Assembly (NCBI GenBank): GCA_965243025.1
Contig: CBDETY010000003.1
Coordinates: 3,040,001 to 3,104,000, forward strand
DNA: 64,000 nucleotides
Direction of reading: 5' to 3'
Source of the DNA: Candidatus Latescibacterota bacterium
GTDB lineage: Bacteria; Latescibacterota; UBA2968; UBA8231
Position numbers and translations under genes: made by a program
Notes under the pieces: model-generated
What the model was told of the DNA's origin: nothing
The model's database searches: none
Seen by the model: only the letters and a program-made list of their open reading frames with translations
Shown: positions 18,689-46,829 of the stretch, one piece after another
Layout of the letters: the number at the start of each line of letters is the position of its first letter
Position numbering within the stretch: the stretch's first letter is position 1

Positions 18689-19054
18689 GTGAGGTTCAGA
18701 GAATCAATGGTCGTCAACTCCGCGACAGTAATTCCGATTCAATTCCAAGGTCTTCGGATTTTTGACTATACTGCAGGAGGGAATACCAGTTCTTCACTTG
18801 CCAGAATCGTAGTTCCTCCTGGTGGGAGCCATCGGAAGGCGAAGTCGGAGCGTTCGGATAAATACTACTATGTTCTGCAAGGAGAAGTACTCTTCGAAGT
18901 AGAGGGGGATAATTATCGACTCGAAGACGCAGACTTTTGTCTCATAGAGCAAGGTAAGAGCTTTTCGTACGAGAATCAGACAGAAGAAGAGGCGATTTTG
19001 CTGCTCCTTCACACCCCAAGTTTCAACTTGGATTCAGAGACCTTTTTAGATTGA
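18689..19054 (+). CDS. Cupin-domain protein (cassette gene)
   Basis: PPGGSH...YYVLQGEVLFEV...GKSFSYEN cupin pattern. Confidence 0.8.
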   Translation: MRFRESMVVNSATVIPIQFQGLRIFDYTAGGNTSSSLARIVVPPGGSHRKAKSERSDKYYYVLQGEVLFEVEGDNYRLEDADFCLIEQGKSFSYENQTEEEAILLLLHTPSFNLDSETFLD

Positions 19055-19095
19055 GCAAGTCTACGTTGAGGAACAAGAAGGGGGTGCAAAACGCG

Positions 19096-19168
19096 GCATA
19101 ACACGAACGGAAGGGGTTCCGGCGCCTTTTTGCCTCTGCAGGAAAAACGTGCCTGCGACAGGTTAGCA
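19096..19168 (+). repeat. Degenerate attC-like site
   Basis: GCATAAC...GTTAGCA after the cupin gene; end arm reads GTTATGCCGC-GT in reverse complement (position-11 G rule). Confidence 0.5.
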
Positions 19169-19197
19169 GCCCGGGGGACCGTTATAGGAAATGCCAA

Positions 19198-20286
19198 CTA
19201 GTGTTGTGTCGCAGAGATTCGCTCACAAAGTCTCTTGATTTTCGCGAGGATGGAATCGGCCGTAGCCGTCCAGACGAAAGGGCGTGCGTTGGCGTTCCAT
19301 TTGGCGGTGTAGCGTTCGATCCGCTCGATGAGCTCTGATACCTTACGGAACGAGTCCCGGCGAAGAGCTTGGCGGGTAATGACGCTGAACCAGATCTCGA
19401 CTTGGTTGAGCCACGAAGCATACGTGGGGGTGTAGTGAACGTGAAATCGAGGACGCCGTGCCAGCCATCGCTTGACCTTGGCATGCTTATGCGTGGCTTA
19501 GTTGTCGACGACCAGATGAATATCGAGGTCAGCCGGGACGTTGGCTTCAATGTGGCGCAGGAACTGGAGGAACTCCTGGTGACGATGACGAGACTTGCAC
19601 TGGGTCATCACGGCGCCGGTGGCGATGTCCAGTGCGGCGAACAGGGTGGTGGTGCCATGCCGCTTGTAGTCGTGCGTTACCCCTTCCACGTATCCCAGTC
19701 CCAGGGGCAGCATGGGCTGACTTCGTTCCAACGCCTGGATCTGGCTCTTCTCGTCCACGCGCAGCACCATGGCGTGCTCGGGGGGATTCAGGTATAAGCC
19801 GACGATATCCCGTACTTTGTCGACAAAGAAAGGATCGGTGGAAAGCTTGAAGTGCTTGTGTCGGTGGGGCTGCAAACCATACGTGCGCCAAATGCGATGA
19901 ACGCCATCCTTGGTCAGGCCGGTTTCCTCGCCCATGGAGCGCAGCGACCACTGGGTTTGGTCTTTGGGCTGGGTCTTCAGGGTCTTGTATACCACCTCGG
20001 CTACCTGCTCGTCCGTGATCGATCGCGGCGCCCCTGAGCGCAGCTCATCATACAAGCCTTGGAGCCCGTTTTCGAGAAAGCGCCGGCGCCACTTGCCGAC
20101 CGTAGCACGCGTCACACCCACCGCGGCCGCGACGGCTTCATTGGGCCAGCCTTCGGCGGCCAGCAGTATAATCTCGGCTCGCCGCACCAACCCGTGGGGA
20201 AGGCTCCGTGATTTGGCCATCGATTCCAATCGTTCCCGGTCCGACGGACTCAGCTCTAACGGCGTTAATGGACGCCCCGTCACCAT
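19198..20286 (-). pseudogene. IS630 transposase with in-frame stop
   Basis: HTH plus DEKSQIQAL...VVDN, then TAA at 19498; same frame continues ATHKH...ASWLNQVEIWF to TAG at 19198. Confidence 0.88.
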
Positions 20287-20368
20287 AGGTCTCTCCTTTC
20301 AGAAAAGGGGATAAGAGAAACCTACGGCACCTTCAATTGTTTGTACAGTTATTTAGACGACAGGGCAC
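19201..20368 (-). mobile_element. IS630-family element
   Basis: Imperfect terminal IRs (GTGTTGTGTCG / GTGCCCTGTCG); duplicated TA in a CTAG target (19199-19200, 20369-20370). Confidence 0.9.
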
Positions 20369-20424
20369 TAGAGGGATTGTGCGGAATGACTTGGGATTCA
20401 GGAAGGCTGCGGAGGCGGACGGTG

Positions 20425-20500
20425 ACATCGCAGCCCCGCGGGCGCCTTGGCCTTTGGCAACTAGCGGGACGGGTTCGCACACTGAGTAAAAACGTTATAA
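20425..20500 (+). repeat. attC-like site (same family, opposite orientation)
   Basis: GCGCCTTGGCCTTTGGCAAC...CGGGTTCGC...AACGTTATAA is the reverse complement of the minus-array consensus. Confidence 0.7.
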
Positions 20501-20549
20501 GGGAATGCTAGCCAAGAGACTTGGGCTGTTCATATGGAGGTACTGAGAT

Positions 20550-21269
20550 ATGGGTTTGCCGAACATGGTTGTGATTGGATTTGGGCGGATGGGCCGCAAG
20601 TTTGCGGAGATCTTCTCTGAGCGTTTCCAAGTGCATGTGATTTCCTCCCGAAATGTATCAGACACGGTAGCTGAAATTGGCTGCGATCAAGCAAATAGTT
20701 TTTCGCAGGCGGTCTCTGATGCGGAGTACCTATTTCTCGCTGTGCCAATCCATGCCTTGGACGAAGTTATCGAACAGGTCAATTCGTACGTTCGGCCGGA
20801 TGCGGTCGCATTTGATATGTGCTCAGCACGCGTCGTGGCTGGCAAAAAGATGGACAAACTATGTTGCAACTGGTTCGGGATACATGCGGGAGGTGTATTT
20901 GGCGATGCGGATTCCAGGATCATTGAGTTCCTTGCGGAGAAGGGATATCGATATCGGCCGATGAGGGCGGATGAACACGACAGAAGAAATGTCATCAATG
21001 CACTCGCCCATTTCATCGGCATGACCTTGGACGATTTCCTGTCAGAAAAGGAAAAGGAGGCATTTGGACCAGCGGGCCGGAATCTGGTCGACCTAATTGA
21101 CCATTTGCGCGCCAACGCGCCTGTTACGTATTGGGAGAGTCAGGTCTGCAATCCCTACGCCAGTGAACAAAGAGCCAAACTCGTTGGTGCTTTCGAGGAA
21201 TACTCGGTCCGACTTTCACGCGGAGATTTTCCTTTCTTTCCGAGTCTATCCGGGATGTCTTGGGAATAG
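20550..21269 (+). CDS. Prephenate dehydrogenase-like Rossmann oxidoreductase (cassette gene)
   Basis: VIGFGRMG, LFLAVP, DMCS, ADEHD motifs. Confidence 0.7.
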   Translation: MGLPNMVVIGFGRMGRKFAEIFSERFQVHVISSRNVSDTVAEIGCDQANSFSQAVSDAEYLFLAVPIHALDEVIEQVNSYVRPDAVAFDMCSARVVAGKKMDKLCCNWFGIHAGGVFGDADSRIIEFLAEKGYRYRPMRADEHDRRNVINALAHFIGMTLDDFLSEKEKEAFGPAGRNLVDLIDHLRANAPVTYWESQVCNPYASEQRAKLVGAFEEYSVRLSRGDFPFFPSLSGMSWE

Positions 21270-21292
21270 TCCGAAAAAGTGAGGCGGCAATC

Positions 21293-21383
21293 CTATAACA
21301 GGACGAGTCGCGCCGTTGCGTCGATTGGCGCCTCGGCCCTCAGGATACTGCCGTGCAGGTCCACAACCCCTGAAACCTTAAGT
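21293..21383 (+). repeat. Degenerate attC-like site
   Basis: CTATAAC...GGCGCCTCGGCC...; right core decayed to CTT. Confidence 0.5.
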
Positions 21384-21451
21384 GAAATTGGGGCATGACG
21401 GAAGTATCCATGACCCAATCCATGACATTTGGGAGGAATCAAGTCATAGCG

Positions 21452-21539
21452 GGCAGCGTTTAGCGTTCGCGCGCCTTTTTGGCAGCTTTGTTTTTGGGCA
21501 ACCCGGAACGCGGGTTCGACAATCCGGGAATCGCTAGAC
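21452..21539 (+). repeat. Degenerate attC-like site
   Basis: Contains GGCAACCCG-GAACG-CGGGTTCG hairpin; right core GCTAGAC. Confidence 0.45.
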
Positions 21540-21568
21540 GACACCCAATTTGAAAGGTCATCTGATCG

Positions 21569-22195
21569 ATGCAGTTTTCCGATATCCTGATCGCTTCGTA
21601 TGAAAATCACGCGTTGGAACGTGAATCGAGTACTTCCAATTCATTCAAGGAGCTAGAAAGGCACGAGTTCCAAAAGTATCTGAAAATCGAGAGACGAAGC
21701 ACTATCCTTGAGCTTGGTTGTGGACCTGGTCACGATGCACGTTCCTTTATGGAACAGGGCTTCCAAATTCTTGCTGTCGACATTGCTCCGAGGATGGTCA
21801 AATTGGCGAAACAAAAAGGGGTCAACGCCAGAATTTTGGATTGCTATGATCTCGATCAGATGGTCGAAACATTTGACGCCATTTATTCGATGAATTGCCT
21901 TCTTCACATACCGAATAATGATATACTTCACATACTCGACTTGATCTCGGCTCGCCTCAATGAAGGCGGCTTTTTGTATCTCGGTTTATGGGGAGGCGAA
22001 GACTTTGAGGGAATCTGGGAGGAGGATCGATTTGAGCCGAAACGGTTTTTCTCTTTTCGGAAGACAGAGACTCTTTTGGAGCTCGTACATCAGTCATTTG
22101 AAGTCCAGTATTATCGAAAAATAGAGGCTCGGAAGGGTATGTTCTTCAATTCACTGATTAGCCGCAAGCGTTATCCCGAAGTGGGCGTTCTTTAA
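21569..22195 (+). CDS. Class I SAM-dependent methyltransferase (cassette gene)
   Basis: ILELGCGPG, AVDI, FDAIYSMNCLLH; stop overlaps TTTAAC site arm. Confidence 0.88.
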   Translation: MQFSDILIASYENHALERESSTSNSFKELERHEFQKYLKIERRSTILELGCGPGHDARSFMEQGFQILAVDIAPRMVKLAKQKGVNARILDCYDLDQMVETFDAIYSMNCLLHIPNNDILHILDLISARLNEGGFLYLGLWGGEDFEGIWEEDRFEPKRFFSFRKTETLLELVHQSFEVQYYRKIEARKGMFFNSLISRKRYPEVGVL

Positions 22196-22644
22196 CCTGT
22201 TTCTGGGGCGAAGGCTCAATCAGGTTATCGGTACGGAACCGCAGCCGGAAACCAGTGCCGCGGCTAGGAAAGGTGAAGATAACAGGATATCCAAGAGCTG
22301 AAGATCGGGAAGGGATCTGAGCGCAGGGGCGGTGTTGACCGATCCGAAGTGATTGGTCCGAGGAACTGGAAGCCTAGCTTCTCCCGCTCAATCCGGACAG
22401 CACCATCGAAGAAATTGCTGAGGAAATCAACAAGCGCAGACTTCTGGGAAAGTTCTTGGAGATAGCGGAGAAAAGACCCAGACCAGTGGGAGTGAGCCCA
22501 CAAACTGAAGGAACAGCTACCGGACAGCAATCATCACCATCGAGGAGATCGCGAAGATCCGCCGCAGGCTTCACAAAAGGGCGCGTATTGAGCGCGACAG
22601 GGAGGACAGCGGTAGGGGCAGAAGGACAGCCGCCACTCAGGGGG

Positions 22645-22854: not shown

Positions 22855-22928
22855 TCCAGCCCTTCGCGAAACAGCGCTATCGTTTCATATGCCTTGTTTT
22901 GAACATTTCACATGCTCGAAGGTCCTTC

Positions 22929-23022
22929 ACGTAACGTCTCACCGATTGCCGAACTCGCCGAAGACGATCCCAAAGGCCAAAGGTCGGCGCCGCCAGCCGT
23001 AGCGGAAAACGAGTTGTAATGG
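22929..23022 (-). repeat. attC-like site (one core decayed to GTA)
   Basis: Aligns along its length with 31311-31406. Confidence 0.75.
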
Positions 23023-23033
23023 GACGTGCAGAT

Positions 23034-23732
23034 TCATTGTCGTCCCGTGGACGTCCCAATAAGAAAATCCGAGGCGGCAAGCCACTGCTCTGCGACTGTA
23101 CGAAGGTCGCCTCCTGGTATCGCGACCCTCGCTGGAATCTCCTGGAGCACCGCGCGCAGCTCTCCACCCCGCTGACGAAGCAAACTCATATCGGTTTGCC
23201 CCCGTAGCACAGATTTTACTTCCGAGTACGCAAAGTGCATCGCCGTGCCTATGCGGTGTTCTAAGGACCAGTCCATTTCATTCTCTCGACGAAGCCGAGA
23301 AACCAGTAGTCTTTCTGGAGGATACTCCCCAACCGACAGGTATCCTGGTTTGCATTCTGCCAGCGTGCCAAATCTGGCAACGTCCTCACCACGCTCGAAC
23401 GGGCAAAGATCCATGAGGTTCAGATCCACTTTGTGAAACACTGACTCGTTACGAAGAACCGTTCCAAGCATGCATGCCGACGTCGCGGTGGACATGAGCA
23501 TCCCGTGGTAGCGAAAAGGACGATAAGAGTTCAACGCACCCACCACATTCCAGCAGCAGCCAGGAAATCCAGAGACTACGAGAAGAAGGTCGATGTCCGA
23601 CCAACGATCCTCTTCGCCCCTAGCCTCCGAACCGAACGTGTAGCAACGCTCAACGACTGGAAGGGTCCCAAGGAAATCACACAGGTCCTTCGCCAGTGTC
23701 CGCCTTGCAGCCATTCCAGGTTGAGTCAACAT
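23034..23732 (-). CDS. Nucleotidyltransferase-domain protein (cassette gene)
   Basis: YTFGSEARG...SDIDLLLV pol-beta NTase motif. Confidence 0.8.
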   Translation of the reverse strand: MLTQPGMAARRTLAKDLCDFLGTLPVVERCYTFGSEARGEEDRWSDIDLLLVVSGFPGCCWNVVGALNSYRPFRYHGMLMSTATSACMLGTVLRNESVFHKVDLNLMDLCPFERGEDVARFGTLAECKPGYLSVGEYPPERLLVSRLRRENEMDWSLEHRIGTAMHFAYSEVKSVLRGQTDMSLLRQRGGELRAVLQEIPARVAIPGGDLRTVAEQWLAASDFLIGTSTGRQ

Positions 23733-23777
23733 CCCGTTCCTTTGGGGGAATCTTGATCTTACACCCTACCTACATTG

Positions 23778-23861
23778 CTCAAACGTTTCGCCGTGCCCGA
23801 ACCGCGAATGCGGTTGCCCGAAGGCGCGCCTGCGCCAAAGCCGGGCACGGACGTGTTAGGC
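23778..23861 (-). repeat. attC-like site
   Basis: Plus strand: AAC-6nt-CCGTGCCCG...CGGGCACGG-4nt-GTTAGGC. Confidence 0.85.
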
Positions 23862-23867
23862 GAAGAC

Positions 23868-24668
23868 TTACACTTCAGCCAGAATTACCATTCCCACAGG
23901 AAGTCGAGGCACGTCACCCTCACTGTCGACATTATCCCAACCAGCCAATTCTTCAAGTCGGCGAATGACAAATCCCGCATCAGCGATGGCGTTAACGACC
24001 TCCGCGAGGGGATGAAAGAATTCGACAATTTCTCGCTCCCCTTTCCAGCCACCGTGTTTGTCAGCGAGTGGAGTGCCGTCGAAACGGTAATACCCAGGTG
24101 ACGTGTTGAAGTAATCTCGTTCGACCGAAAAGACGCCATCCCTCTCCGACAAGCATTCCAAGACTGGATTGCCGTGGGTTAATACCAATCGTCCCGTTGG
24201 CTTGAGGACCCTGTGCCAATTGCGACAACACAAGAATAGATCCTCGAACCAGCAGATGTACGTTGCAACGACGATATCCAGGCTACCGTCAGGTATCGGC
24301 AACAAAGTCTGAGCATCGGCTTCGACAAATGTGACATTCGATCCGATCTTGGCCGCATTTTCCTTTGCAATGCGGATCGCTACTGGGCTGATGTCGCAGG
24401 CCGTAACGTGGGCACCGAGATTCCCCCAGGAGAAAGCCTGTTTCGCATCTCCCGCGCAACAGGTATCTAGCAGGTGCGCCCCGGAAACGTCACCAGCCAA
24501 TTGGACTACTGCTGCGTCGAGGGTGACTGCCCCCTCAGCATAGTGCTTATGGAAGTTCGGCACCTCTTTGAGGTTGAAATCCATGTAGGCTTCTTGGTAT
24601 TCGTCCCAAGCTTCTCTCAGCATCTTGTTATGGATGGCTTGTTTATCTGGCTGGTTCATATTTGACAT
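23868..24668 (-). CDS. Class I SAM-dependent methyltransferase (cassette gene)
   Basis: LLDTCCAGD, VTACDIS, EADAQ, LKPTG motifs. Confidence 0.85.
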   Translation of the reverse strand: MSNMNQPDKQAIHNKMLREAWDEYQEAYMDFNLKEVPNFHKHYAEGAVTLDAAVVQLAGDVSGAHLLDTCCAGDAKQAFSWGNLGAHVTACDISPVAIRIAKENAAKIGSNVTFVEADAQTLLPIPDGSLDIVVATYICWFEDLFLCCRNWHRVLKPTGRLVLTHGNPVLECLSERDGVFSVERDYFNTSPGYYRFDGTPLADKHGGWKGEREIVEFFHPLAEVVNAIADAGFVIRRLEELAGWDNVDSEGDVPRLPVGMVILAEV

Positions 24669-24695
24669 TTCCCCACAACCGGAAATCGAGTTTTC

Positions 24696-24779
24696 GCCTA
24701 ACGGACAAGGGCTTGCGATGGGCGGACCCGCGTGTGCGCGGTGTATAGTTGAGAAGGGTCCTCAAGCCCGGAGTTGGTG
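24696..24779 (-). repeat. attC-like site
   Basis: AAC-6nt-GGGCTTGCG...CTCAAGCCC-3nt-GTTGGTGGCC. Confidence 0.75.
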
Positions 24780-24794
24780 GCCGTGCTCCCCTCC

Positions 24795-25271
24795 CTACTC
24801 CCGCTCCACGAAATATTTCTTAAATCCGTGACTCGTCCCATCTTGCATTCCAAGGCGTTTGTAGAATCCCACCTGATCTTCGTTTGGACCGCTGAGTAAC
24901 TGTAACTTGTAGCAGCCCTTCTCTTCGGCAAGGTTAATCGCAAATGTCATCAGTTTTTTCCCAAATCCTTTGCCTCTTTGTTCGCGTGCAACAACGACGT
25001 TCTCGATGATAGCCCAAGGGCGCCCTTCGTAAGTAAAATTCGGAACGATTGCCATTATGAGAGTGGCCACTATTTCCTTATCCGACTCGCCCACAACAAT
25101 GAAAATGTTGCCGTAGTCAGACATCTCATCGAAGATCCGAATTGACTCTTCGAGTCCGAGAGTCTTGGCCGAAAGACTATGGGGGCGGCTCGTGATCTGA
25201 GGAAAGAGATTTAGCAGCGATTCGACGTCTAACCTGGTCGCAACTCGGCAAGAAATGTCTGAATGATTCAT
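24795..25271 (-). CDS. GNAT acetyltransferase (cassette gene)
   Basis: IENVVVAREQRGKGFGKKL, FYKRLG. Confidence 0.9.
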   Translation of the reverse strand: MNHSDISCRVATRLDVESLLNLFPQITSRPHSLSAKTLGLEESIRIFDEMSDYGNIFIVVGESDKEIVATLIMAIVPNFTYEGRPWAIIENVVVAREQRGKGFGKKLMTFAINLAEEKGCYKLQLLSGPNEDQVGFYKRLGMQDGTSHGFKKYFVERE

Positions 25272-25300
25272 CCGGTGGCCTTTCTCGACTTCGGCATGGC

Positions 25301-25368
25301 CATTAACGTTTTACCGGTTGCGGAAGCCCAAGGTGCGCCAGCACCGCAGCGCAAACGTGTTGTTAGAC
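25301..25368 (-). repeat. attC-like site (short, first hairpin absent)
   Basis: AAC-7nt-CGGTTGCG...CGCAAACG-4nt-GTTAGAC. Confidence 0.8.
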
Positions 25369-25376
25369 GCTGCTTC

Positions 25377-25694
25377 TCACAGCTCTACTTCCTCGCAAGC
25401 CCACTCCTGCTCAAATGTCATTAACTCATTCCAACGTTCAAGAATGGGTTCATATTGGCGATACCAGTCAGCGTAATCCTCCGAATTCGTCGTCTCCTCC
25501 CAAGTGTGACGACTCGACCAATACTGCAACGCGAGATAAAATCGAGTATCAGCGATGCGAAGCAGACCGAGCCGCAGACAACCTGGGAGTTTCTTGAAGT
25601 GTGGAACGATCTCCCCACTGACAAGACTTTCAAGCTCCCCTTGCTCCGCACCATCTCGCAATGACCACCGCTTAAACGTTATGAAGTTTGACAT
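25377..25694 (-). CDS. Dimeric alpha/beta-barrel (ABM-like) protein (cassette gene)
   Basis: KLPGCL...YLALQYWSSR pattern; bounded by sites. Confidence 0.65.
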   Translation of the reverse strand: MSNFITFKRWSLRDGAEQGELESLVSGEIVPHFKKLPGCLRLGLLRIADTRFYLALQYWSSRHTWEETTNSEDYADWYRQYEPILERWNELMTFEQEWACEEVEL

Positions 25695-25704
25695 ATGAAA
25701 TTTT

Positions 25705-25796
25705 GTTTAACGTTCCGGGCGGCCTGCGAACCCGCGCAGCGGGTTGCCGGAGGCCAAGGCGCGATCAGCGCCGCAGCGCAAACCGCGGCGTTACCC
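25705..25796 (-). repeat. attC-like site
   Basis: AAC-7nt-stem-AACCCGC GCA GCGGGTT-GCC GGA GGC-CAA-GGCGC...GCGCC-GCAG-stem-GTTACCC. Confidence 0.88.
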
Positions 25797-25869
25797 GATG
25801 TATCAAACCACTGGACGCACCTGCGCTACTTCACTCACTCTTGAGGAACGGCACGAATTGCATCATCTA

Positions 25870-27025
25870 GTGCTCTGTTAAAGAGTCGGCATTGAATTTT
25901 GGACCTTCACCAACTTGGCATCGTCCCGGTTTCGATGTCGCCATACGAGGTATTCCTGCATGCGTTGGCCGACGTCTCGATGGTCCCTTGGGTCGCTGTT
26001 CTTGATGACGAAGTAATGGGCCGCCGTCAGATGGCATTCGAGACGATTCATCCAGGAGGCGTTGGTCGCGGTGAAGACCAAAAAGACCTGATTTCGCTGA
26101 CACCATCGCCGGATCTTGTCGGTCGTGTGCGTCGACAGGTTGTCGAGGACGAGGTAGATGCGTTTGGCTTTGCGGTAGCGGCGCCGGATGGCCTTCAGGA
26201 AGGTGAGCACCACCGAGGCGTGCTTCTTCGGCTTGTGATGCATCCACAGGTGATCCTCGTGGACGTTGTAGGCGCCGAAGAAGTAGCTGACGCCGGCGTG
26301 CCGGGAGTAGGTGGCCCGGTGCCGCACCGGGTGTTTCTGCGGCGCCCACGAAGAGCCGGCATGGGGCTTGATCTGCACCGGCCCCATCTCGTCGAAGCAG
26401 ACTACGACCGCGTCCTTCGGCGGGCGCCGGTAGAGGCGGTCGATGCGTTTTTTTTCGAGGAGAAATCCGGATCCTTCGACTCCTTCCAGGTGCGGGTCCG
26501 CTGGTAGGTGATCTTATGCCGGTCCAGGACCTTGGCGATGGTCACGTGCGAGACCTTGGGGATCATCTGGCGCCCCACCAGACAGTCGGTCAGCTTGCGC
26601 AGCGACCAGTGATTGAAGGGTTCGCCGAAAGCTCGAGGGGGCATCTTGGCGATCTCCACCACCACGGACTCGTCTTCGGGCGTCAGCGTCGGGGGGCGCC
26701 CCGGATGGGCTCGGGTGCGCAGCGAGGCCAGCCCTTCCTCGTTGTATTGCCGCAGCAGTTGGCGCACGTATTCTTCGTGCAGATGCAGGGTCGACGACAG
26801 TTCCTGGACCCGCATACCCTGGGCACTGAGGGAGATCAACTGCCCTCGGCGCATCTGCACGGCATGGCGCGGCCGCTTCAGCCATCGGCTCAGTTCCCTG
26901 GATTCGGCCGCATTCGGTGTTCGAGCATGGAGACACATGGCAGGACCTCCCCGTAAGAATCGACGTATGTCCCCATGATACCAAGGCTTACGAGAAAGTA
27001 CAAGCCCCAATCCTTAACGGAGCAC
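25870..27025 (-). mobile_element. IS630-family element
   Basis: IRs GTGCTCTGTTAAAGA / GTGCTCCGTTAAGGA; TA duplication in CTAG. Confidence 0.92.
25878..26938 (-). CDS. IS630 transposase in two ORFs, probably joined by a -1 frameshift at A8 (26448-26455)
   Basis: HTH ORF (WSLRKL) then CFDEMGP...VLDNLSTH...ASWMNRLE DDE domain. Confidence 0.85.
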
Positions 27026-27174
27026 TAGCTGGCGCGACAATGGCGATAAATCGACACCAGACTTCGGATCAATCACTGCAATCGTGTAATCAACTGTGGT
27101 ATCAGGGTAAACCTGTGGAGTTGACCCGATTTCGTGGACACTTCATTTCTTGAAAGAAAGGAGGGTGTCCAACC

Positions 27175-27489
27175 ATGCCGAAATCCCATTCCCCTTATCC
27201 GCCCGAATTCCGGCAACAGATGGTGGAACTGGTACGGGCGGGTCGTAGTCCGGAGTCGCTGGCCAAGGAATTCGAGCCGTCCGGGCAGACGATCCGCAAC
27301 TGGGTGATCCAGGCCGAACGCGATGAGGGGGTGCGCCGCGACGGCCCCTCCCGTCCGGAGCAGGAGGAATTGCGGCGCCTTCGCCGTGAGAACAAGCAAC
27401 TGCGTATCGAACGGGAGATCCTGGCAAAAGCCACGGCCTGGTTCGCTCGCGAGGCCGACTCGGAGTCCGGCCCGTCTACGAGTTCATGA
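27175..27489 (+). CDS. IS3 transposase OrfA
   Basis: YPPEFR, HTH, leucine zipper ELRRLRRENKQLRIEREIL. Confidence 0.92.
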   Translation: MPKSHSPYPPEFRQQMVELVRAGRSPESLAKEFEPSGQTIRNWVIQAERDEGVRRDGPSRPEQEELRRLRRENKQLRIEREILAKATAWFAREADSESGPSTSS

Positions 27490-28370
27490 GAGCGCACCAG
27501 GCCGACTTTCCGGTGCTGACGATGTGCCGCGTGCTGAAGGTCTCCCCCAGCGGCTACTACGCCTGGTTGAAACGCCCGCCTTCGGGTCGCGCCCGGGCCG
27601 ATGCCGTGCTCAAGGCACGTGTCGAGCAGATCCACCAACACTCCCGGGGCACTTATGGAGCGCCGAGGATCCGGGCCGAACTGGCCGAGGAGGGCCAAGC
27701 CATCGGTCGCAAGCGCATCGCCCGATTGATGCTTGAGCTCGGGGTGCGCGGGGTATGCGCCCGCCGCCGCCTCTCCACCACCCGTCGCGGCCGGCAGGGC
27801 CGGGTCGCCTCCGACCTGGTCAAGCGGGTGTTTTCGGTCTCCGGCCCGAATCGCCTGTGGGTTGCCGATCTCACCTACATTCCCACGAGGTCGGGGTTTT
27901 TGTATCTGAGCGTGGTCATGGACGCCTGGAGCCGCCGAGTGGTGGGCTGGGCCATGGCGAACCATATGCGTACGCAGTTGGTGCTGGACGCCCTTGACAT
28001 GGCCCTGCACCGGCGCCGTCCCAAGAAAGTGATTCACCACTCCGACCACGGCAGTCAGTATACGGCCCTGGCCTTCGGGAAGCGCTGTCGCCAGGCCGGG
28101 GTACGTCCGTCGATGGGATCGGTCGGTGACTGCTTCGACAATGCTCTGTGCGAAAGCTTTTTCGCCACCTTGGAAAGGGAGCTGCTGGATCGTCATCGGT
28201 TTGCTACCCAGTCGCAAGCCCAGCGTACGGTTTTCGAATACCTGGAAGGCTGGTACAACCCCCATCGGCGGCACTCGGCCCTGGGACAACGATCTCCCAT
28301 CAACTACGAGAGGTATCATTTATCAAGGGGTATAAATCCAAACGGAAAACTGTCCGTGAAATCGGGGTAA
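27486..28370 (+). CDS. IS3 transposase OrfB (DDE)
   Basis: WVADLTY, HHSDHGSQY, DNALCESFFATLE. Confidence 0.94.
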   Translation: MRAHQADFPVLTMCRVLKVSPSGYYAWLKRPPSGRARADAVLKARVEQIHQHSRGTYGAPRIRAELAEEGQAIGRKRIARLMLELGVRGVCARRRLSTTRRGRQGRVASDLVKRVFSVSGPNRLWVADLTYIPTRSGFLYLSVVMDAWSRRVVGWAMANHMRTQLVLDALDMALHRRRPKKVIHHSDHGSQYTALAFGKRCRQAGVRPSMGSVGDCFDNALCESFFATLERELLDRHRFATQSQAQRTVFEYLEGWYNPHRRHSALGQRSPINYERYHLSRGINPNGKLSVKSG

Positions 28371-28631
28371 CCTCACCTGAACAATCTTGTAGTCGATGGA
28401 AGGGTTCGGCTCCACAACGCGGACTGAATACTTAGCACCCAACTCAGGAACATGCACGTGGCGCAATTGTTTCAAAGCGTCTTCGACCCTTCGAACCGAA
28501 GACGAGTCACCTTGAACGACCAGCGTTAGTGGCTCTTCGGCGGGTTCGTCGCAGCTAGCCTCCAGGAGTGCCCCTACTCCTGAACAGATAATCCAGAGTC
28601 GTCGTCGCATCATGTTCTGATCTCGCATTTC

Positions 28632-28720
28632 GGGTAACGTCCGACAATTCCCGACAGCCCGAAGGGCTGTGCCGAAGGACGAGCGGCGAATGGCGCGCCG
28701 TGGGAATTGCTTTGATATAT
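28632..28720 (-). repeat. attC-like site (GAT core)
   Basis: AAC-6nt-CAATTCCC...GGGAATTG-4nt-GATATAT. Confidence 0.82.
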
Positions 28721-28791
28721 GACGTGTACTCTCAGAGGCAATGGGGTCCTGTTGGTGCACAATTTGTAAGATATCTTCGTTGAAACGCGAG

Positions 28792-29505
28792 CTACTCCGG
28801 CAGTCTTCCAGCTAACCATTCAATGGCGTTGAGGGTCCATGTCTCGTTTGACGCGCCCGCGAACAGATCTGTGCGGGAGTCGTCGAGGCTGGAAATGTGG
28901 CCCCCCGAGGTCATGACAACGGCCTTGCCCGCGATCGCCCCGGGCGGTTCTATTGCTGCGGCAAAATCGCCGACATTAGGGTCTTCACTACGGCCCAGGA
29001 CTGTGACGGAAGAACCCCGTCCCAAGGTCATTGAGCAGGATGTCCGGATCTGTAAGCCGTGGGGACAATTTTGCGAAATCGGATGGGAAGGGACCAGCAC
29101 TATTCGTGGCGTTCTAACCCACTCCTCATGGAATGTTACGGGCAAGTCCAACGTGCGAGCGACTTGATTCTGCGGTTCAACGAACCCCTTGTGATTGGCC
29201 ATGAGGAATAGACCACCACCGCGCGTAAAGAAATCGGTGATGGCGGCCAATTCGCCGTCCGAGAACGGAATACTTTTTCTTCTCCCCGAGATCACCAGGA
29301 CTCCGGCCTCGCGTAGGGAAGCCGCTTCGAGATCCGTAGGATCCATAGTGTAGCCACGGGCAGTGAGAGCGGAGGCAAGTCCAACCAACCGCTGTCCTCG
29401 CCAAGCGTCCCCTCGGGGCGGTTCACTATAGTTTTCAGGTTCCGTACCTTGATGTCGAATAACCTGATGACTTTTCGAATCGAAAGCCACTTTTACCATA
29501 ACCAT
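28792..29505 (-). CDS. Hypothetical protein, class-I glutamine-amidotransferase-like/DUF4350-like (cassette gene)
   Basis: FSDGELAAITDFFTRGGGLFLMANH and LNAIEWL motifs. Confidence 0.6.
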   Translation of the reverse strand: MVMVKVAFDSKSHQVIRHQGTEPENYSEPPRGDAWRGQRLVGLASALTARGYTMDPTDLEAASLREAGVLVISGRRKSIPFSDGELAAITDFFTRGGGLFLMANHKGFVEPQNQVARTLDLPVTFHEEWVRTPRIVLVPSHPISQNCPHGLQIRTSCSMTLGRGSSVTVLGRSEDPNVGDFAAAIEPPGAIAGKAVVMTSGGHISSLDDSRTDLFAGASNETWTLNAIEWLAGRLPE

Positions 29506-29534
29506 GGTACTATTCCAGTCACCTTATCCATGTC

Positions 29535-29624
29535 ATATATCGCTTTCCGGTTGCCGAACCCGCGAAGCGGGTTGCCGAAGGCCAAGGCGCCCGAGGGCGG
29601 GGCAGCGGCCACAGGTTGTTACCG
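29535..29624 (-). repeat. attC-like site
   Basis: ATC core, AACCCGCGAAGCGGGTT-GCCGAAGGC-CAA, ends GTTACCG. Confidence 0.85.
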
Positions 29625-29640
29625 GATGTGAGATCTCAAC

Positions 29641-30384
29641 CTACCCGAACCCGTTGGTCCGTATCCATTCGATTGACGACGAGATGCCCTCGTCAAGAGT
29701 TTCCAAGCACCACACAGCTTCCGGCGCATACTCCAGAAGAGCACTACACACCTCACCAATAGGGATAGTCCCTTGATCAAGAGCGAGGTGCTCGTCGGGC
29801 TCTCCGTGATTGTTGTGCATGTGAACCCACCCGATTCTGGGTCCAAGTCGTTCGACCCACGCTATCGGAGTCTCACGAGAGTTGCAATGGCAGTCCCCAA
29901 TATCGAGGCATACGTCCACTCGAGGATCATTGATTGCGTCGATCACTTCAGCTAGCAGGACGGCATCCCATCCGAGCATGTTCTCAACATGGTAGCGAAC
30001 AGAGGGTTCCTTGCACTCAAGGAAGTCATGCCAGAACGCCACACATCGAGACAACCAATTCTGCGGGGCGCTGGTGCCTGGGACGTATCCGTGGTGTAGG
30101 ATGATGTCGAAGCAATCTAGTTCACGGGCGAAGCGGCACGCCAGTTCGAATCGATGCCGGGTCACCTCCCGGATCATGGGATCATAGCTTCCAGCGCACA
30201 GATCCCCGAAAGGTCCGTGGAGTGAACGTAGCTGAAGATCATCCAGAGGTCTTTGTAATGCTGCCACCCTCTCTGGCTCGAGGAAAGACTGGATCTCGAT
30301 CCCATATCCATGTTGACGACAGACAGCGGCGTACTGGAGATCATCGACCGCAACCATAATGCGATGGGGTTTGTAACTCGTCAT
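29641..30384 (-). CDS. Sugar-phosphate isomerase/epimerase (xylose-isomerase-like TIM barrel; cassette gene)
   Basis: SLHGPF, HVEN, CLDIG, VHMHNNHG, DEHL, CLE; start reassigned to ATG 30384 inside the cassette boundary. Confidence 0.85.
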   Translation of the reverse strand: MTSYKPHRIMVAVDDLQYAAVCRQHGYGIEIQSFLEPERVAALQRPLDDLQLRSLHGPFGDLCAGSYDPMIREVTRHRFELACRFARELDCFDIILHHGYVPGTSAPQNWLSRCVAFWHDFLECKEPSVRYHVENMLGWDAVLLAEVIDAINDPRVDVCLDIGDCHCNSRETPIAWVERLGPRIGWVHMHNNHGEPDEHLALDQGTIPIGEVCSALLEYAPEAVWCLETLDEGISSSIEWIRTNGFG

Positions 30385-30404
30385 CACTTCGCAAATCTCC
30401 TTTC

Positions 30405-30488
30405 CGGTAACGTTCTCGCCGTGCCAGAACCGCGAAGGGGTTGGGCGAAGGCACCTCAGCGCCGAAGCCGGGCACGGACGTGTTATAT
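30405..30488 (-). repeat. attC-like site
   Basis: AAC-7nt-CCGTGCCAG...CGGGCACGG-4nt-GTTATAT. Confidence 0.87.
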
Positions 30489-30514
30489 GCAGTGCCGCAA
30501 GCGCTGACAACACT

Positions 30515-31255
30515 TCACGGACCCTGTGCCTGGTAGACCCCAATTATTCGGTCAATACTCTTGGTATGAAGGCGCTCATGCCATACCAGGCGACGCAAAA
30601 CCTTCCCCACAGACCAGCCGCCGTGAGCATCTAAGAGATGAATTCGCGAAAGGTCTTGTTCTGCCTTCAACTTCTGTAATGCCTCGATTGTCACGTTTCG
30701 ATGTTTTAATAAGTTATGCTGCCACGGACCCTTACTGTCAGCGGGCGAAACGGTAGGACGGATACCAATGTTTGGCAAGTAATAGTGAGTTTCTACGTTT
30801 GCGATGTGCACAAGAATCTGTCGGATTGTTCGCCAGTTCGCCCAAGTTGAAAAACGGCGATAGGGCGGATTCCAATCTAAGGCGTTGTCCGACAACTCAG
30901 CGACCTGCCTCAGAAGGTCTGTGCGTGTGGCATGAAGTAAATCGATTGTCTCATCAATCAATGAAGGTGTTACCGGCTGGTAATCCCAGTCGAACAGTAT
31001 CTCGTTTCCGCTGACCTGTTCGGCAACCTCCACTTTGGGTAGCTCTAACCCCACTCGGCACGGCACGCCACACCTTTCGCGAAACCGAATGTACTCCAGC
31101 AGTCTGTCGGGGACCTTTGCAAGGACTTCGTTTTCGGTCTCTCTCCATGTAGCAAAGCCGAGATAAGATGGAATCCAGGCATGGTATCCCGCTTCCCCAT
31201 CTTCGTCGAAAGCTCTGTGGAGGTAAACTTTTGAACTCGCTCTCGGCTCAAGCAC
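30515..31255 (-). CDS. DinB-family protein with HicB-like N-terminus (cassette gene)
   Basis: TIRQILVHIANVE and WSVGKVLRRLVWHERLH DinB histidines; N-terminal AWIPSYLGFATWRETENE. Confidence 0.72.
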   Translation of the reverse strand: MLEPRASSKVYLHRAFDEDGEAGYHAWIPSYLGFATWRETENEVLAKVPDRLLEYIRFRERCGVPCRVGLELPKVEVAEQVSGNEILFDWDYQPVTPSLIDETIDLLHATRTDLLRQVAELSDNALDWNPPYRRFSTWANWRTIRQILVHIANVETHYYLPNIGIRPTVSPADSKGPWQHNLLKHRNVTIEALQKLKAEQDLSRIHLLDAHGGWSVGKVLRRLVWHERLHTKSIDRIIGVYQAQGP

Positions 31256-31310
31256 TCTGATCCTGGACCTTTCTGTGCCTCATTGCATGTCCTCTCTCAG
31301 TCCGCATTGC

Positions 31311-31406
31311 ATATAACGTCTCACCGATTACCGAACTCGCCGAAGGCGAGTTGCCGACAGGCCAAGGTTGGAGAAGCCAGCCGCAGCGGTAAACGAGTGG
31401 TTAGTG
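31311..31406 (-). repeat. attC-like site
   Basis: AAC-7nt-CGATTACCG...CGGTAAACG-4nt-GTTAGTG. Confidence 0.88.
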
Positions 31407-31469
31407 GATGTGCGATTCTCTCCAAGAACAGCCGGTATGAGGAGAAAAACTCTCAGTCTCTCAGGACAC

Positions 31470-31910
31470 TCAGACAGACGAACGAACAGGTCTTGATGCC
31501 CAGCCTAGGGTTCCAACGCCACCGATGGTTGCCGCGGTTCCAACCACCATCCCCACGATGGTCCCTCCGCCGCATTCCTCGACGCCCAACTCCATTAGTC
31601 TCCAATACTGGTAGAGAGTCCCGACGAAGACCGGAAGCATCCCGATTGCGATTGCTGTCAACCGCTGCCCCACACTGAACTCCTTCAGAAAGCGCCTACC
31701 CAAATTGTACCATACAAAAAGCGTCCCGGCACCGAAGATCGCGAAGACAGCTAGCATTACCAGTCCGAATGGAACTCCCTCGACCGGATTGTTGAGAAGG
31801 GCGTAAAAGACGCCTATGAACAGCGCCATCATGCTGACCGCAGTGGCCAGGAGCGCGACCCCAGCCCCCCCGGGACTACCAAGCAGATCAAGAAAGCGTC
31901 GAATACTCAT
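31470..31910 (-). CDS. Hypothetical 4-TM membrane protein (cassette gene)
   Basis: Four hydrophobic segments; bounded by sites. Confidence 0.75.
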   Translation of the reverse strand: MSIRRFLDLLGSPGGAGVALLATAVSMMALFIGVFYALLNNPVEGVPFGLVMLAVFAIFGAGTLFVWYNLGRRFLKEFSVGQRLTAIAIGMLPVFVGTLYQYWRLMELGVEECGGGTIVGMVVGTAATIGGVGTLGWASRPVRSSV

Positions 31911-31957
31911 TCCGCATCCACCTCAAGGCTCAAGGTTCCCTAATTCTATCGCATTTC

Positions 31958-32046
31958 CACTAACGTTTTGACAGGACTCCGAACCGGCGTCAGCCGGTTG
32001 GGTCGGGGTTGTCGGGACGGGAGCCGCGCAGCCTGGCTTGTTATAC
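31958..32046 (-). repeat. attC-like site
   Basis: AAC-7nt-CAGG...AACCGGC GTCA GCCGGTT...CCTG-4nt-GTTATAC. Confidence 0.82.
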
Positions 32047-32095
32047 GCCGGGCGTGACGGGGTGGAAGGGTGTCGGGGGGATTTGCCCACGAGAG

Positions 32096-32611
32096 CTACT
32101 CGCTTAGGTCGACCCAGTATCTCTTGTACTTAGTTCTTGTGTCTACATCCCGAAGTTCGTCTTCCAGGATTCCCCCGTTTGCTTCGATCACCCTGATAGA
32201 TGCACCGTTAACTGAGTCCGTCGTTACAAGTACCCTTGTGACTCGCATGTCCTTTGCTTCGCGCAGAGCTGCCGCCAGCATGGCCTTCCCGTATCCTTTA
32301 CCTCTCGCAGATGGCTTGACGTAGTAGCCGATGTGTCCGCCTTTATGCTTGAGCTCGGGTGTCAAGGAGTGCCGCAGTCGACACATCCCGACGGGACTGC
32401 CGTCGTCGTCCAAGAACCAGTAAGTGGACTGCGCCACCAATCCTGGCCTCAGTCCTTTCCCTTCAGCGGAATCAACGAGACGCTGCAGGTACTCGCCCAG
32501 TTCCCCTTTGACATAGTCCGTTCCTCCGAACCCGCTTTCTCCGTTGCCAACCTCCTCGAGGAACGCATCAAGGCCTTTGGGTGGGTTCGGGGAGGCTTTG
32601 ACTAGCTTCAT
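32096..32611 (-). CDS. GNAT acetyltransferase (cassette gene)
   Basis: GGHIGYYVKPSARGKGYG, NGASIRVIEANGG. Confidence 0.9.
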   Translation of the reverse strand: MKLVKASPNPPKGLDAFLEEVGNGESGFGGTDYVKGELGEYLQRLVDSAEGKGLRPGLVAQSTYWFLDDDGSPVGMCRLRHSLTPELKHKGGHIGYYVKPSARGKGYGKAMLAAALREAKDMRVTRVLVTTDSVNGASIRVIEANGGILEDELRDVDTRTKYKRYWVDLSE

Positions 32612-32640
32612 CAGACTCTTTCCTCATCCTCACGCCTGGC

Positions 32641-32729
32641 GTATAACATTATGCCGGTTTGCGAACCCGCGAAGCGGGTTCCGGAGGCCAAGGCGCGAAT
32701 GCGCCGCAGCGCAAAACGTGCTGATATAT
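32641..32729 (-). repeat. attC-like site (GAT core)
   Basis: AAC-7nt-CGGTTTGCG-three hairpins-CGCAAAACG-4nt-GATATAT. Confidence 0.88.
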
Positions 32730-32765
32730 GACGTTGGATCCAATGATTCAAACGGAAAACAATGT

Positions 32766-33362
32766 TTAAGGAACGCAAAACCACCATTGAGGGGACGAAG
32801 CAACAATTTCTGCCATCTTGGAATAGCCAATACTTCTCGGATGAGACCCGTCATTTTCGGAGACCTCCCGCGTATAAGCCTCATCCCAACAGAGGGCAGA
32901 AAAGAGATCGATGTACGGAACATTGAGCGATTGAGCCTCTATGGTGAAGGCACGCGAGAGTTCCTCAACTCTGTCATTTTGTTCGTCATCGAGTACGGGC
33001 GGAGGCCCCACCACCAACACATTATACCTTTTGGCTTCTTTCAGCATTGATCTGACGTTTGTGCAGGAATCCTCTGGCTCTACACGCACCCTTCCATTCT
33101 CTATTGCCGTATCGTTTACGCCACATGAGATAACCACCCTACCATCGCAGAAATCAGGCAGCCGTAAGACGCATTCGCTCTCCCAACGAAGTAGGATGTC
33201 GCTGCTCGTGTCTCGACGAATTCCAAGGTTGTAGTAGGTGACGGGCGTACCACTGGTGCTTGCTCTGGCACACAATCGCCCTGCCCAGCCAAGGGCATCC
33301 TCATCACCGGTACCATTGACGAACGAGTCACCAATAAAGCAAATCCTGATATCCTGGGTCAC
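32766..33362 (-). CDS. SGNH/GDSL hydrolase (first cassette)
   Basis: IGDSF, NLGIRRD, GVND, DGSHP blocks. Confidence 0.92.
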   Translation of the reverse strand: MTQDIRICFIGDSFVNGTGDEDALGWAGRLCARASTSGTPVTYYNLGIRRDTSSDILLRWESECVLRLPDFCDGRVVISCGVNDTAIENGRVRVEPEDSCTNVRSMLKEAKRYNVLVVGPPPVLDDEQNDRVEELSRAFTIEAQSLNVPYIDLFSALCWDEAYTREVSENDGSHPRSIGYSKMAEIVASSPQWWFCVP

Positions 33363-33405
33363 GCGTGTTCAATCCCCTAAAGTCCAATGTCATATATCTG
33401 ATTAC

Positions 33406-33426
33406 ACCCGAACATTTGGTTAGGGT
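33406..33426 (-). other. attI-like recombination simple site at array head
   Basis: Minus strand ACCCTAAC-CAAAT-GTTCGGGT: 8-bp inverted arms and a 5-bp spacer, like attI1 CCCTAAA-ACAAA-GTT. Confidence 0.5.
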
Positions 33427-34210
33427 AATGCACCACAGGGTGTTATTTATCTGAAACGATAGTACGTTCCGGGGTGAACCCTCGCAACTTTTCCCCGCTC
33501 GGGGATTTTCCCTAACCCGTTGCGATTGAGACACATAGCCCGTTCTCCGATCCCTGATGGGGACTGACACGGTTTCTCTTACGGCAGGGGCTAACCCGTG
33601 CCTTTGAAGCCGTCATGGGTGTTCGGAGCATCATCTTGACCAGCCCGACGACGAGGGCGCAAGCTTGGACCGGGTCGAATCCGAGTTTTCCTTGGGGAGG
33701 GGGACGCCAAGAAAGCGCCGAAGTCCTACATGGGCTACTGCCAGAGATTCCTTCTGTGGAAACGGCTCCTCGACCGGGGAGTGAACGGCTCCGCCTTCAA
33801 CAGCGCAGCGTTCTAAGCTTCTCTACGGAGAGTCTGAAAACAGCCCGTCCCCTTGGAGGGACTGCGCATGCATTCGCTTCCAGTTCTTGCCGTCCCTGAT
33901 CTTAGAGGGGAGTCTCCGAGGAGGATTACCCGGCATTTGAGCAGGCGGTGGTCGAAGAGTGCCTCGCGGGATTCCGGCGCGGAGGAGGAGTTTCTCGGCG
34001 ATTTCACCGAAACCTGAGAACCTACCGAATCGATGGGAACACCCTGCCGGTCACCACCCTGGCAAACGGCGAGGTCGGCACCAATAAACTGATTGCCCCA
34101 TCATTCGTCCACGGCCATCGCCCGAACCACTTGGAGTATCCTGAAGGCGGCGCATTTTATGCCGGAATAAAACAGGCATCAAGAAGGCAAGGCCATCAGA
34201 TGATGAAGTG

Positions 34211-46628: not shown

Positions 46629-46700
46629 GGTTAACGGAAGGCGGTGACGCACCGCCCCTTGCGAGTGGGCGGTTGGTCGAAGGCCCAAGGGCCCGGGGCG
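46629..46700 (-). repeat. Truncated attC-like half-site
   Basis: GGTTAAC-7nt-stem arm, ACCGCCC...GGGCGGT hairpin, GGTCGAAGGCC-CAA-GG; far arm missing. Confidence 0.55.
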
Positions 46701-46793
46701 GGGTAAGGTTATGCCGGTTTGCGAACCTGGGGCAGCCAGGTTGCCGAAGGCCAGGGCGCGATCAGCGCCGTAGCGCAAAACGTGCTGTTAGCC
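46701..46793 (-). repeat. attC-like site (satellite copy; one core decayed)
   Basis: Closely resembles 32641-32729 (TTATGCCGGTTTGCGAACC...AGCGCAAAACGTGCTG). Confidence 0.82.
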
Positions 46794-46829
46794 GCTGTCG
46801 CCAGGCAATGATTCGGGATCGAGTTGCTC

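Follow-up and report, generated by a model that had tools for sequence, protein, structure and literature searches.

The window analysed here is the whole stretch of 64,000 nt from a Candidatus Latescibacterota contig (CBDETY010000003.1 of assembly GCA_965243025.1, positions 3,040,001-3,104,000), and at 22.9-33.4 kb it holds a string of short units, 11 cassettes in all, with a single open reading frame (ORF) per unit on the - strand. We interpret this string as a chromosomal integron-like cassette array, in which the repeats at the two ends of each cassette are the outer (R) arm halves of attC recombination sites. The arm would be bound by the array's own Xer-like recombinase, which lacks the I2 domain specific to integron integrases (IntI), and a T·G pair kept at one place of the arm would mark the strand and the fold. 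On the whole, we put the probability of this interpretation at about 0.6.

Own-end repeats in the window, in the family and in canonical integrons

On the + strand, the cassettes begin with the G of GTTA (twice GATA) and end with the C of TAAC (twice TATC). Since the units read GTTA...TAAC on this strand, it is the "bottom" strand in integron terms, and with the genes on the - strand, reverse-complementing a cassette's right end on the + strand gives its start. The original prediction had placed cassette boundaries and terminal inverted repeats at 23855-33398, and our analysis bears out both: all ten cassettes there (c1-c10) match their own ends, the start agreeing with the reverse complement of the end at positions 1-10 almost throughout. 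At position 11 the start has A and the reverse complement of the end has G in all ten, and past it the match picks up again, to position 13-18. Over positions 5-20 the ten cassettes average 10.1 own-end matches out of 16, compared with 5.1 (at most 10) for the 90 cross pairs among them, and the weakest own-end match is that of c3 with 6 of 16. The eleventh cassette (23016-23784) has T/G at position 11 and little end pairing, which makes ten of 11 cassettes with A at the start and G at the end, the same count as had been predicted.

The attC family was searched for with a profile of the inter-cassette element and then with a model (R1), which is sequence-only because RNAalifold gave no consensus pairs on the MAFFT alignment A2. 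A generic attC finder, with forced AAC/GTT pairing and fold energy, was tried and dropped because it has no specificity in G+C-rich DNA, giving 212 and 220 matches on the two strands of the 64-kb window. About 20 further sites form a second array in the same genome, at a distance of 1 Mb, where the A/G pattern is readable, and there are scattered sites as well. Among the genomes of the same bacterial family, R1 detects the attC family in 45 of 76, distributed in 12 of 18 genera, with up to 53 sites per genome among the matches listed. The sites were mapped in 36 regions from 15 family genomes, and the total set includes 279 attC sites and 205 unique cassettes in 16 genomes; composition was counted on 258 unique starts and 248 unique ends. 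As kin genomes are not independent, the survey figures are counts and not tests. Predicted boundaries are TAAC in 229 and GTTA in 232 of about 265 cases, with TATC/GATA in 13-15, and by these boundaries the sites have the attC boxes R'' (RYYYAAC) and R' (GTTRRRY). About 5% of the sites carry a GAT/ATC core instead of GTT/AAC, for example at 28714, 29541, 32723 and 33398 in the window, at 1042 in locus L001, and in locus L182.

The consensus of the attC arm is GTTAnnnGAn[A/G]TG, with conservation at positions 8, 9, 12 and 13. Position 8 is G in 95% of starts and 98% of ends, position 9 is A in 69% and 60%, position 12 is T in 67% and 65%, and position 13 is G in 50% and 51%, respectively. At position 11, A is found in 88% of the 258 starts and G in 87% of the 248 ends. 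The A/G pair is present in 162 of the 205 unique cassettes, with proportions of 71-90% in each of the seven genomes having at least ten cassettes, and the pattern is kept across at least eight genera; the predicted bias thus persists in the larger set of 16 genomes. Agreement of a start with its own end is 77-80% at positions 5-7 (31-33% for cross pairs), 75% at position 9 (47%) and 51% at position 10 (29%). At positions 12-17 it is 77, 71, 70, 56, 48 and 40%, compared with 49, 36, 33, 27, 26 and 25% for cross pairs. It reaches background from about position 20, and cassette-specific pairing extends to about position 17. The proposal that the hairpin of the excised circle extends up to 18 bp into the cassette stands as an upper end, not as the typical case, the excess of own over cross pairs being gone by about position 17-19. 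The notion of positions 5-10 as a barcode pairing only in the circle stands for positions 5-7 and 10, which are cassette-specific, and fails for positions 8 and 9, which are conserved and can also pair in the array. Actually, in the array context the arm can pair at conserved positions only, with across-site agreement at chance for positions 5-7 and 10. Conversion of a cassette start by the neighbour's end within the array was considered and rejected, with across-site matches of 41, 33 and 31% at positions 5-7 and full match in 14 of 196 cases against 4% expected.

The consensus of the bottom strand reads 5' CATnTCnnnTAAC - element - GTTAnnnGAnGTG 3', where position 11 makes T·G, while on the coding strand A stands opposite C. 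This polarity, which the original prediction had also described, is without exception in the 205 cassettes (162 wobbles on the bottom strand and 0 on the top), and no other position is so skewed; position 10 has a non-wobble mismatch in 79 cassettes, mostly T·T. We modelled the circle form by joining each cassette's end to its own attC and start, and then folding the product. The bottom strand is predicted to form an outer stem of 13-18 bp in nine of the ten window cassettes, in accordance with the hairpin suggested for the excised circle. In the family, the bottom-strand fold is predicted to be more stable in 177 of 197 cassettes with a mean difference of -2.83 kcal/mol, a figure for whole sites, and the minimum-energy fold pairs position 11 in 128 of 197. 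Inward of the arm, the fold first has a spacer that is unpaired and asymmetric, then an inner L stem in which one base bulges out, and finally a tip branching into two hairpins. Covariation over 258 aligned sites gives five covarying column pairs in the inner L stem with a one-base offset, which points to a bulged base on the 3' arm, with consensus A, four bases from the R box. With this base supported, the extrahelical base is not wholly missing, and the original prediction was inaccurate in speaking of a missing one; a second extrahelical base was not found by covariation of the 258 sites, whose alignment is not structure-based. What is absent, judging from the recombinase described below, is the domain that reads extrahelical bases.

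Canonical arrays for comparison were found beside canonical IntI genes, via IntI alignment and within the same phylum, and attC sites recurring in them were inspected directly. To be called, a cassette chain needed a perfect 7-nt repeat with gaps of 45-150 nt, and since the chains are defined by this repeat only, positions 8 onward are unbiased. The reverse strand gives no control, the pattern being symmetric, and chains of up to six also arise beside unrelated recombinases; chains of 5-7 were counted only with regular gaps or independently seen repeats. The resulting set has 73 cassettes in nine chains at eight loci, a probably spurious five-member chain (L075) being counted in it. Own pairing in these arrays is 8-12 bp, with own agreement of 75, 64, 64, 48 and 44% at positions 8-12 and 8% at position 13. 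For example, in an Aquabacterium array exactly 12 bp pair in nine of 12 cassettes, and 11 and 13 bp in two others. Self-pairing past the 7-nt R boxes is also in print, reaching 9-11 nt in integron cassettes (Bouvier 2009). Cassette-specific terminal repeats are therefore canonical and already known, and are not special to the present cassettes. A fixed mismatch in the own-end arm is seen in none of the canonical arrays examined (73 cassettes, eight loci), where the first mismatches include 18 wobbles on the bottom strand and six on the top. Three features are specific to the window's attC family: the A/G kept at position 11, the conservation of positions 8-13, and pairing that continues to about position 17. 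Presence of the pattern in canonical attC cassettes had been named beforehand as a refutation; the inverted repeat is found there and the fixed A/G is not, so this clause holds for one half of the pattern. Neither an R arm with a fixed G·T nor an I2-less recombinase heading attC arrays was found described in our search of the open-access literature, which is not proof of absence.

The pairing in canonical arrays ends sharply at no more than 12 bp (L083, L075, L090, L082 and others), and position 13 is complementary in 8% of own pairs compared with 17% of cross pairs. This limit fits an 11-bp recombinase arm plus the first spacer base, and suggests that the functional R box of the circle form exceeds 7 bp. 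Within the same phylum, an nhmmer profile of the window's attC family finds no match in the arrays beside canonical IntIs (L034-L042), which carry other attC types; L035, read by eye, has an own pairing of 7-8 bp. It belongs to genome G098, which holds two systems: a canonical IntI with its own attC of about 115 nt and own pairing of 7-8 bp (L035, G098:C3 184300-204299), and 52 sites of the window's attC family (G098:C2 3001-38000), the recombinase of the latter being decayed.

Overall, the present sites share with canonical attC the RYYYAAC/GTTRRRY boxes, the boundary at the R' box, the bottom-strand fold with a spacer, the L stem whose 3' arm has a bulged base (backed here by covariation), the variable tip (branched here), the ORFs in one orientation, and the pairing of cassette ends beyond the 7-nt boxes. 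They differ in the arm, which in canonical attC pairs over 8-12 bp without sequence conservation beyond GTTRRRY, whereas here it is a conserved 13-mer in which T·G is fixed at position 11 and T·T is frequent at position 10, with pairing to about position 17. Moreover, canonical attC typically has two extrahelical bases, G and T, while covariation backs one bulge near the R box in this family, and the unpaired spacer here is asymmetric.

The attI-like region and its recombinase

Directly after the first cassette lies an attI-like region (33399-33631, + strand), followed on the + strand by the start of a tyrosine recombinase gene. The latter is decayed, its 5' part at 33632-33867 (+) corresponding to residues about 7-102 of the 293-aa intact form, and it faces away from the cassettes. 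The non-coding stretch after 33398 is 74% identical to that after the first cassette of the second array, and at eight loci in seven genomes the conserved stretch beside the array begins exactly at the first-cassette boundary. By its position and conservation, 33399-33631 is a candidate for acting as attI. The region contains a palindrome-like CCGAAC-N5-GGTT(A/C)GG, and at the eight loci a motif (A/G)(T/C)(C/G)CGAAC-N5-GGTTCG.. lies about 8 nt from the cassette boundary (window 33399-33445; L001 1043-1085; L183, L182, L155, L190, L174 and L189). In the attC consensus, the first inner hairpin is likewise closed by CCGAAC ... GGTTG, and the palindrome-like motif may, from its sequence, be a second protein-binding element common to attI and attC. 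At three of these eight platform loci, all in the window's genus, the first cassette beside the attI-like region has the GAT/ATC core.

A recombinase gene or its remnant is located 0.6-1.2 kb past the last attC, facing away from the cassettes, at seven of the eight loci with the conserved junction; at the eighth (L189, in G107) no attC is detected within about 2.3 kb. A ninth locus (L126), missed by the junction pattern, has an attC and an N-terminal recombinase remnant. The gene is intact (293-296 aa) in three genomes of three genera (G103, G107 and G105), broken in G106 (by one stop), G104 and G102, and ends with the contig in G101. Among the three intact genes, the ratio of nonsynonymous to synonymous substitution rates (dN/dS) is 0.08-0.12, which indicates a working gene under purifying selection and not a deletion relic.

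The catalytic R, K, H-x-x-R, H and Y motifs are readable in this recombinase. Its best NCBIfam match is TIGR02249 (integron integrase), at 223.6 bits against a cut-off of 265, and the aligned part falls into two stretches, with profile positions 180-234 left out. The best solved-structure match is VchIntIA (PDB 2A3V), of which residues 179-238 are missing, a gap that is plain in the IntI alignment. By this alignment the missing region is the I2 helix region, so the recombinase is without the IntI-specific domain. The I2 is described as docking the extrahelical bases and blocking the second strand exchange, with IntI1 residues 219-220 lying in it (eLife 2020, PMC7790495). The identity of the recombinase is 39-42% to IntIs and 54-61% to full-length non-IntI matches, which are annotated, where named, as XerD or tyrosine recombinases; those that were compared are also without the I2 insertion. 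The XerC/XerD equivalog cut-offs are not reached either (175 bits against 330-335). In a tree of 33 sequences the IntI clade has 100/100 support and the recombinase is placed outside it, a claim limited to "outside the IntI clade", as root and outgroup are poor and the Xer row is a very long branch. Its best family and structure matches are to IntI, and the gene position and orientation relative to attI and cassettes are the same as for IntI genes, while the score below the cut-off, the lack of the I2 region and the place in the tree set it apart.

No IntI above the TIGR02249 cut-off is found in the window's genome, and at E<=1e-40 the IntI profile has no match in G102-G107, whose completeness is 91-93%. 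An intI with the I2 domain, one of the parts of a complete integron, is absent here. We also inspected 80 metagenome loci with relatives of the recombinase at 39-52% identity, where the attC profile had no match and upstream chains were no longer than downstream ones; this limits the demonstrated association of recombinase and array to the clade with at least about 71% identity.

Layout of the array

The elements between cassettes are 54-82 nt long, G+C-rich and of one family; together with the two 7-nt boxes they lie within the attC length range of 57-141 nt and have the palindromic fold. Co-oriented ORFs, each followed by an attC as in integrons, are found in all 11 window cassettes, and in the family the longest ORF lies on the coding strand, that is opposite to the folding strand, in 174 of 190 cassettes. 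Pfam identifies in the cargo a methyltransferase, two GNATs, ABM, DinB, a xylose-isomerase-like TIM barrel, an SGNH/GDSL protein and a nucleotidyltransferase, families typical of integron cassettes. All of the cassettes c1-c10 have their ORFs on the - strand. They include c1 (23855-24702, methyltransferase), c2 (24773-25307, GNAT), c3 (25362-25711, ABM), c4 (25790-28638, unnamed ORF), c5 (28714-29541, DUF4350-like), c6 (29618-30411, xylose-isomerase-like TIM barrel), c7 (30482-31317, DinB), c8 (31400-31964, unnamed membrane-like ORF), c9 (32040-32647, GNAT), and c10 (32723-33398, SGNH/GDSL hydrolase), which is the first cassette and adjoins the attI-like region. The eleventh cassette (23016-23784, - strand) has a nucleotidyltransferase ORF at 23034-23732. 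Cassette c4 is interrupted by two insertion sequences within 25867-28375, the right one of the IS3 family (rve domains, ORF 27486-28370) and the left one at about 25867-27010.

The attC sites, given here with their 13-nt R-arm halves and all on the + strand, are those of c1 (23772-23867, inner element 23785-23854), c2 (24690-24785, inner 24703-24772, whose inner sequence is divergent with the arms the same), c3 (25295-25374, with a short inner element at 25308-25361), c4 (25699-25802, inner 25712-25789), c5 (28626-28726, inner 28639-28713, with a GAT core variant in the 3' arm), c6 (29529-29630, inner 29542-29617, with an ATC core variant in the 5' arm), c7 (30399-30494, inner 30412-30481), c8 (31305-31412, inner 31318-31399), c9 (31952-32052, inner 31965-32039) and c10 (32635-32735, inner 32648-32722). 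The last site of the - strand array, at 22923-23028 including the 13-nt arms, also has its bottom strand on the +. Beyond this array, a short segment in the opposite orientation is seen at 18700-22200, with attC matches on the - strand at 20434-20501, 21290-21391 and 21473-21545 and with ORFs on the + strand for a prephenate-dehydrogenase-like protein and a methyltransferase. It adjoins an IS630-like transposase gene (19498-20286) and looks like an inverted piece of the same array. A single attC of the same family is located outside arrays at 46695-46799 (E 6e-18), 13 kb past the array head, with a degenerate 5' arm (CTTAC...).

Two of the window cassettes are present elsewhere with other surroundings. 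Cassette c2 is found in contigs of other public runs (window 24763-25309 and 24789-25309; records 18 and 25), and c9 with its own attC in a contig of another public run (window 31960-32652; record 32); these records are contigs and show presence only. The cassette likeness is 90-99%, and the similarity stops within 2-5 bases of the TAAC boundaries, which agrees with the canonical unit (C + attC + cassette ... TAA) and speaks against crossover far inside the arm. A high-depth paralogue of c2 occurs in a run that holds 94% of the window stretch. Joints of read mapping within attC elements were considered as excision products and rejected, since unrelated letters stand between their two sides, as in a cross-alignment of similar attC sites. 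Some cassettes of 90-100% identity differ at start positions 2-7 and are unchanged from position 8 onward (a copy in G106 compared with c4 of the window; a copy in G104 compared with the second array of G000). Exchange at G|TT alone does not explain cassette pairs that differ at positions 2-7 only.

Proposed mechanism, rival explanations and meaning

In the mechanism that we propose, the crossover would lie where it does in canonical integrons (G|TT in the coding strand, AA|C in the bottom strand), which leaves one arm half at the cassette start and the other before the attC at the cassette end. The halves would meet only in the excised circle, where the bottom strand would fold to a duplex arm carrying the position 11 T·G and, in many cases, a T·T at position 10. 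This outer arm (positions 2-12/13, the length of an Xer-type arm) would be the binding site of the cleaving subunit, and a sequence-specific site of the array's own Xer-like recombinase without I2. Since a complete arm would exist in the folded circle alone, own-end pairing would be selected at the step of insertion into the attI-like site. The fixed T·G (A·C on the other strand) would mark the recombinogenic strand and the folded form, and together with the frequent T·T it would make a helical irregularity about one turn from the cleavage site. The T·G is confined to the bottom strand and arises there only once the DNA is folded, so an enzyme that does not read extrahelical bases by I2 could use it to select both strand and form; from the sequences, it is plausible that the wobble takes part in strand choice or recognition.

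Several points weigh against this mechanism. The recombinase gene of the window and the second copy in the same genome are both decayed, and the arrays of this genome are probably frozen. The A/G at position 11 is lacking in 43 of the 205 cassettes, the predicted fold leaves position 11 unpaired in 69 of 197, and the fold energies speak for whole sites, not for the wobble alone. Furthermore, G098 and G099 carry this attC family plus a canonical IntI elsewhere, which could act in trans, and the link of recombinase, arm and wobble to recombination is one that we infer from sequence. It could also be that A and G at position 11 are each recognised on their own half-site, with the wobble pair irrelevant.

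This last point leads to the main rival, ordinary attC biology, which we consider rather unlikely: the repeats would be the known self-pairing of 9-11 nt, while A and G at position 11 would be independent half-site preferences or lineage history, and the wobble would play no role. The self-pairing described in Bouvier 2009 and seen in the other arrays examined agrees with it, and so does the conservation of A and G at starts and ends whatever the partner, the match at position 11 being 8% in cross pairs and 9% in own pairs. Compensatory changes are few as well; in 27 pairs of homologous cassettes there are six compensatory double changes against 124 other changes, a further point against our mechanism, as it makes the direct evidence weak for selection on pairing as opposed to a shared origin of both ends. 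What this rival does not account for is the absolute polarity of the wobble, within a stem that pairs on both sides of it (own match of 70-77% at positions 12-14), and the spread of the position 11 pattern over at least eight genera; no other array examined has a fixed mismatch. An improbable rival takes the arms as double-stranded core sites of Xer type, with positions 2-7 as the swapped overlap, positions 8-18 as the classical 11-bp binding arm, and both strands exchanged without the I2 block. The recombinase is indeed Xer-like and without I2, several homologous cassettes (the copies in G106 and G104 compared with those in G000) differ in the first 7 nt of the start and are identical from position 8 on, and in 80 of 196 cassettes positions 5-7 do not match the own end. 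However, a strictly strand-polar wobble makes sense only when single strands fold, the inner stem shows covariation and a bulge, the similarity of cassettes in other contigs stops at TAAC and not at position 7/8, and the arm halves are 70-80 bp apart in the array, so there is no duplex core site there.

The other two rivals have very little probability. The A at position 11 might belong to a start codon or ribosome-binding signal, with ATG at positions 11-13, and the G to a gene-end signal, the repeat being a by-product. Such an ATG is found in 90 of the 205 starts; a frame of at least 50 codons opens at it in only 14 of the 205, most frames running for 1-20 codons, while the longest ORF begins at a median of 48 nt from the cassette start, and expression signals do not account for the pairing at positions 5-7 and 12-17. 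Least probable of all, the cassettes might be small transposons with terminal inverted repeats and moved by a transposase. There are inverted repeats around each gene and insertion sequences in the region, but the cassettes lack a transposase gene and target duplications, neighbouring units are joined by structured elements of 54-82 bp of one family, and a tyrosine recombinase with a conserved attI-like region stands at the array head in eight loci.

With regard to known systems, integrons are commonly viewed as recognising attC by structure, through extrahelical bases and I2, with little sequence constraint beyond the 7-nt boxes and with I2 as a necessary part. A folded single strand that mimics a duplex core site for XerCD without I2, with exchange of one strand, is known from the CTX-phi attP(+) hairpin. 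This is alike in principle, but is a phage integration at dif by the host XerCD with no cassette array. The window array, having at least two attC sites, no intact recombinase and no IntI, also falls under CALIN (clusters of attC sites without integron integrase), differing in its type by the conserved platform of attI-like region and recombinase. Many CALIN have been reported, most without recognisable intI pseudogenes (Cury et al. 2016, PMC4889954). The same paper mentions only a few recombinases without the IntI domain near attC, always beside fewer than three sites and judged not to be IntI, whereas in the present family the I2-less recombinase heads arrays of 10-25 cassettes.

As a possible but tentative further step, these arrays may represent a gene-capture lineage in at least 12 genera of one family, run by an Xer-like recombinase that never had I2 or has replaced it, in which a 13-bp arm formed only in the circle and its T·G do the job of extrahelical bases. 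If this is true, single-strand cassette recombination evolved or persists without the domain held as its key innovation. The conserved 13-nt arm, the strand-specific wobble and the I2-less recombinase under selection provide a natural test of the I2 rule. Tools that require an IntI-specific domain would call such arrays CALIN, and these calls may explain part of the unexpected abundance of orphan attC clusters. This attC family and its recombinase would also be a possible intermediate between Xer-type and integron-type recombination.

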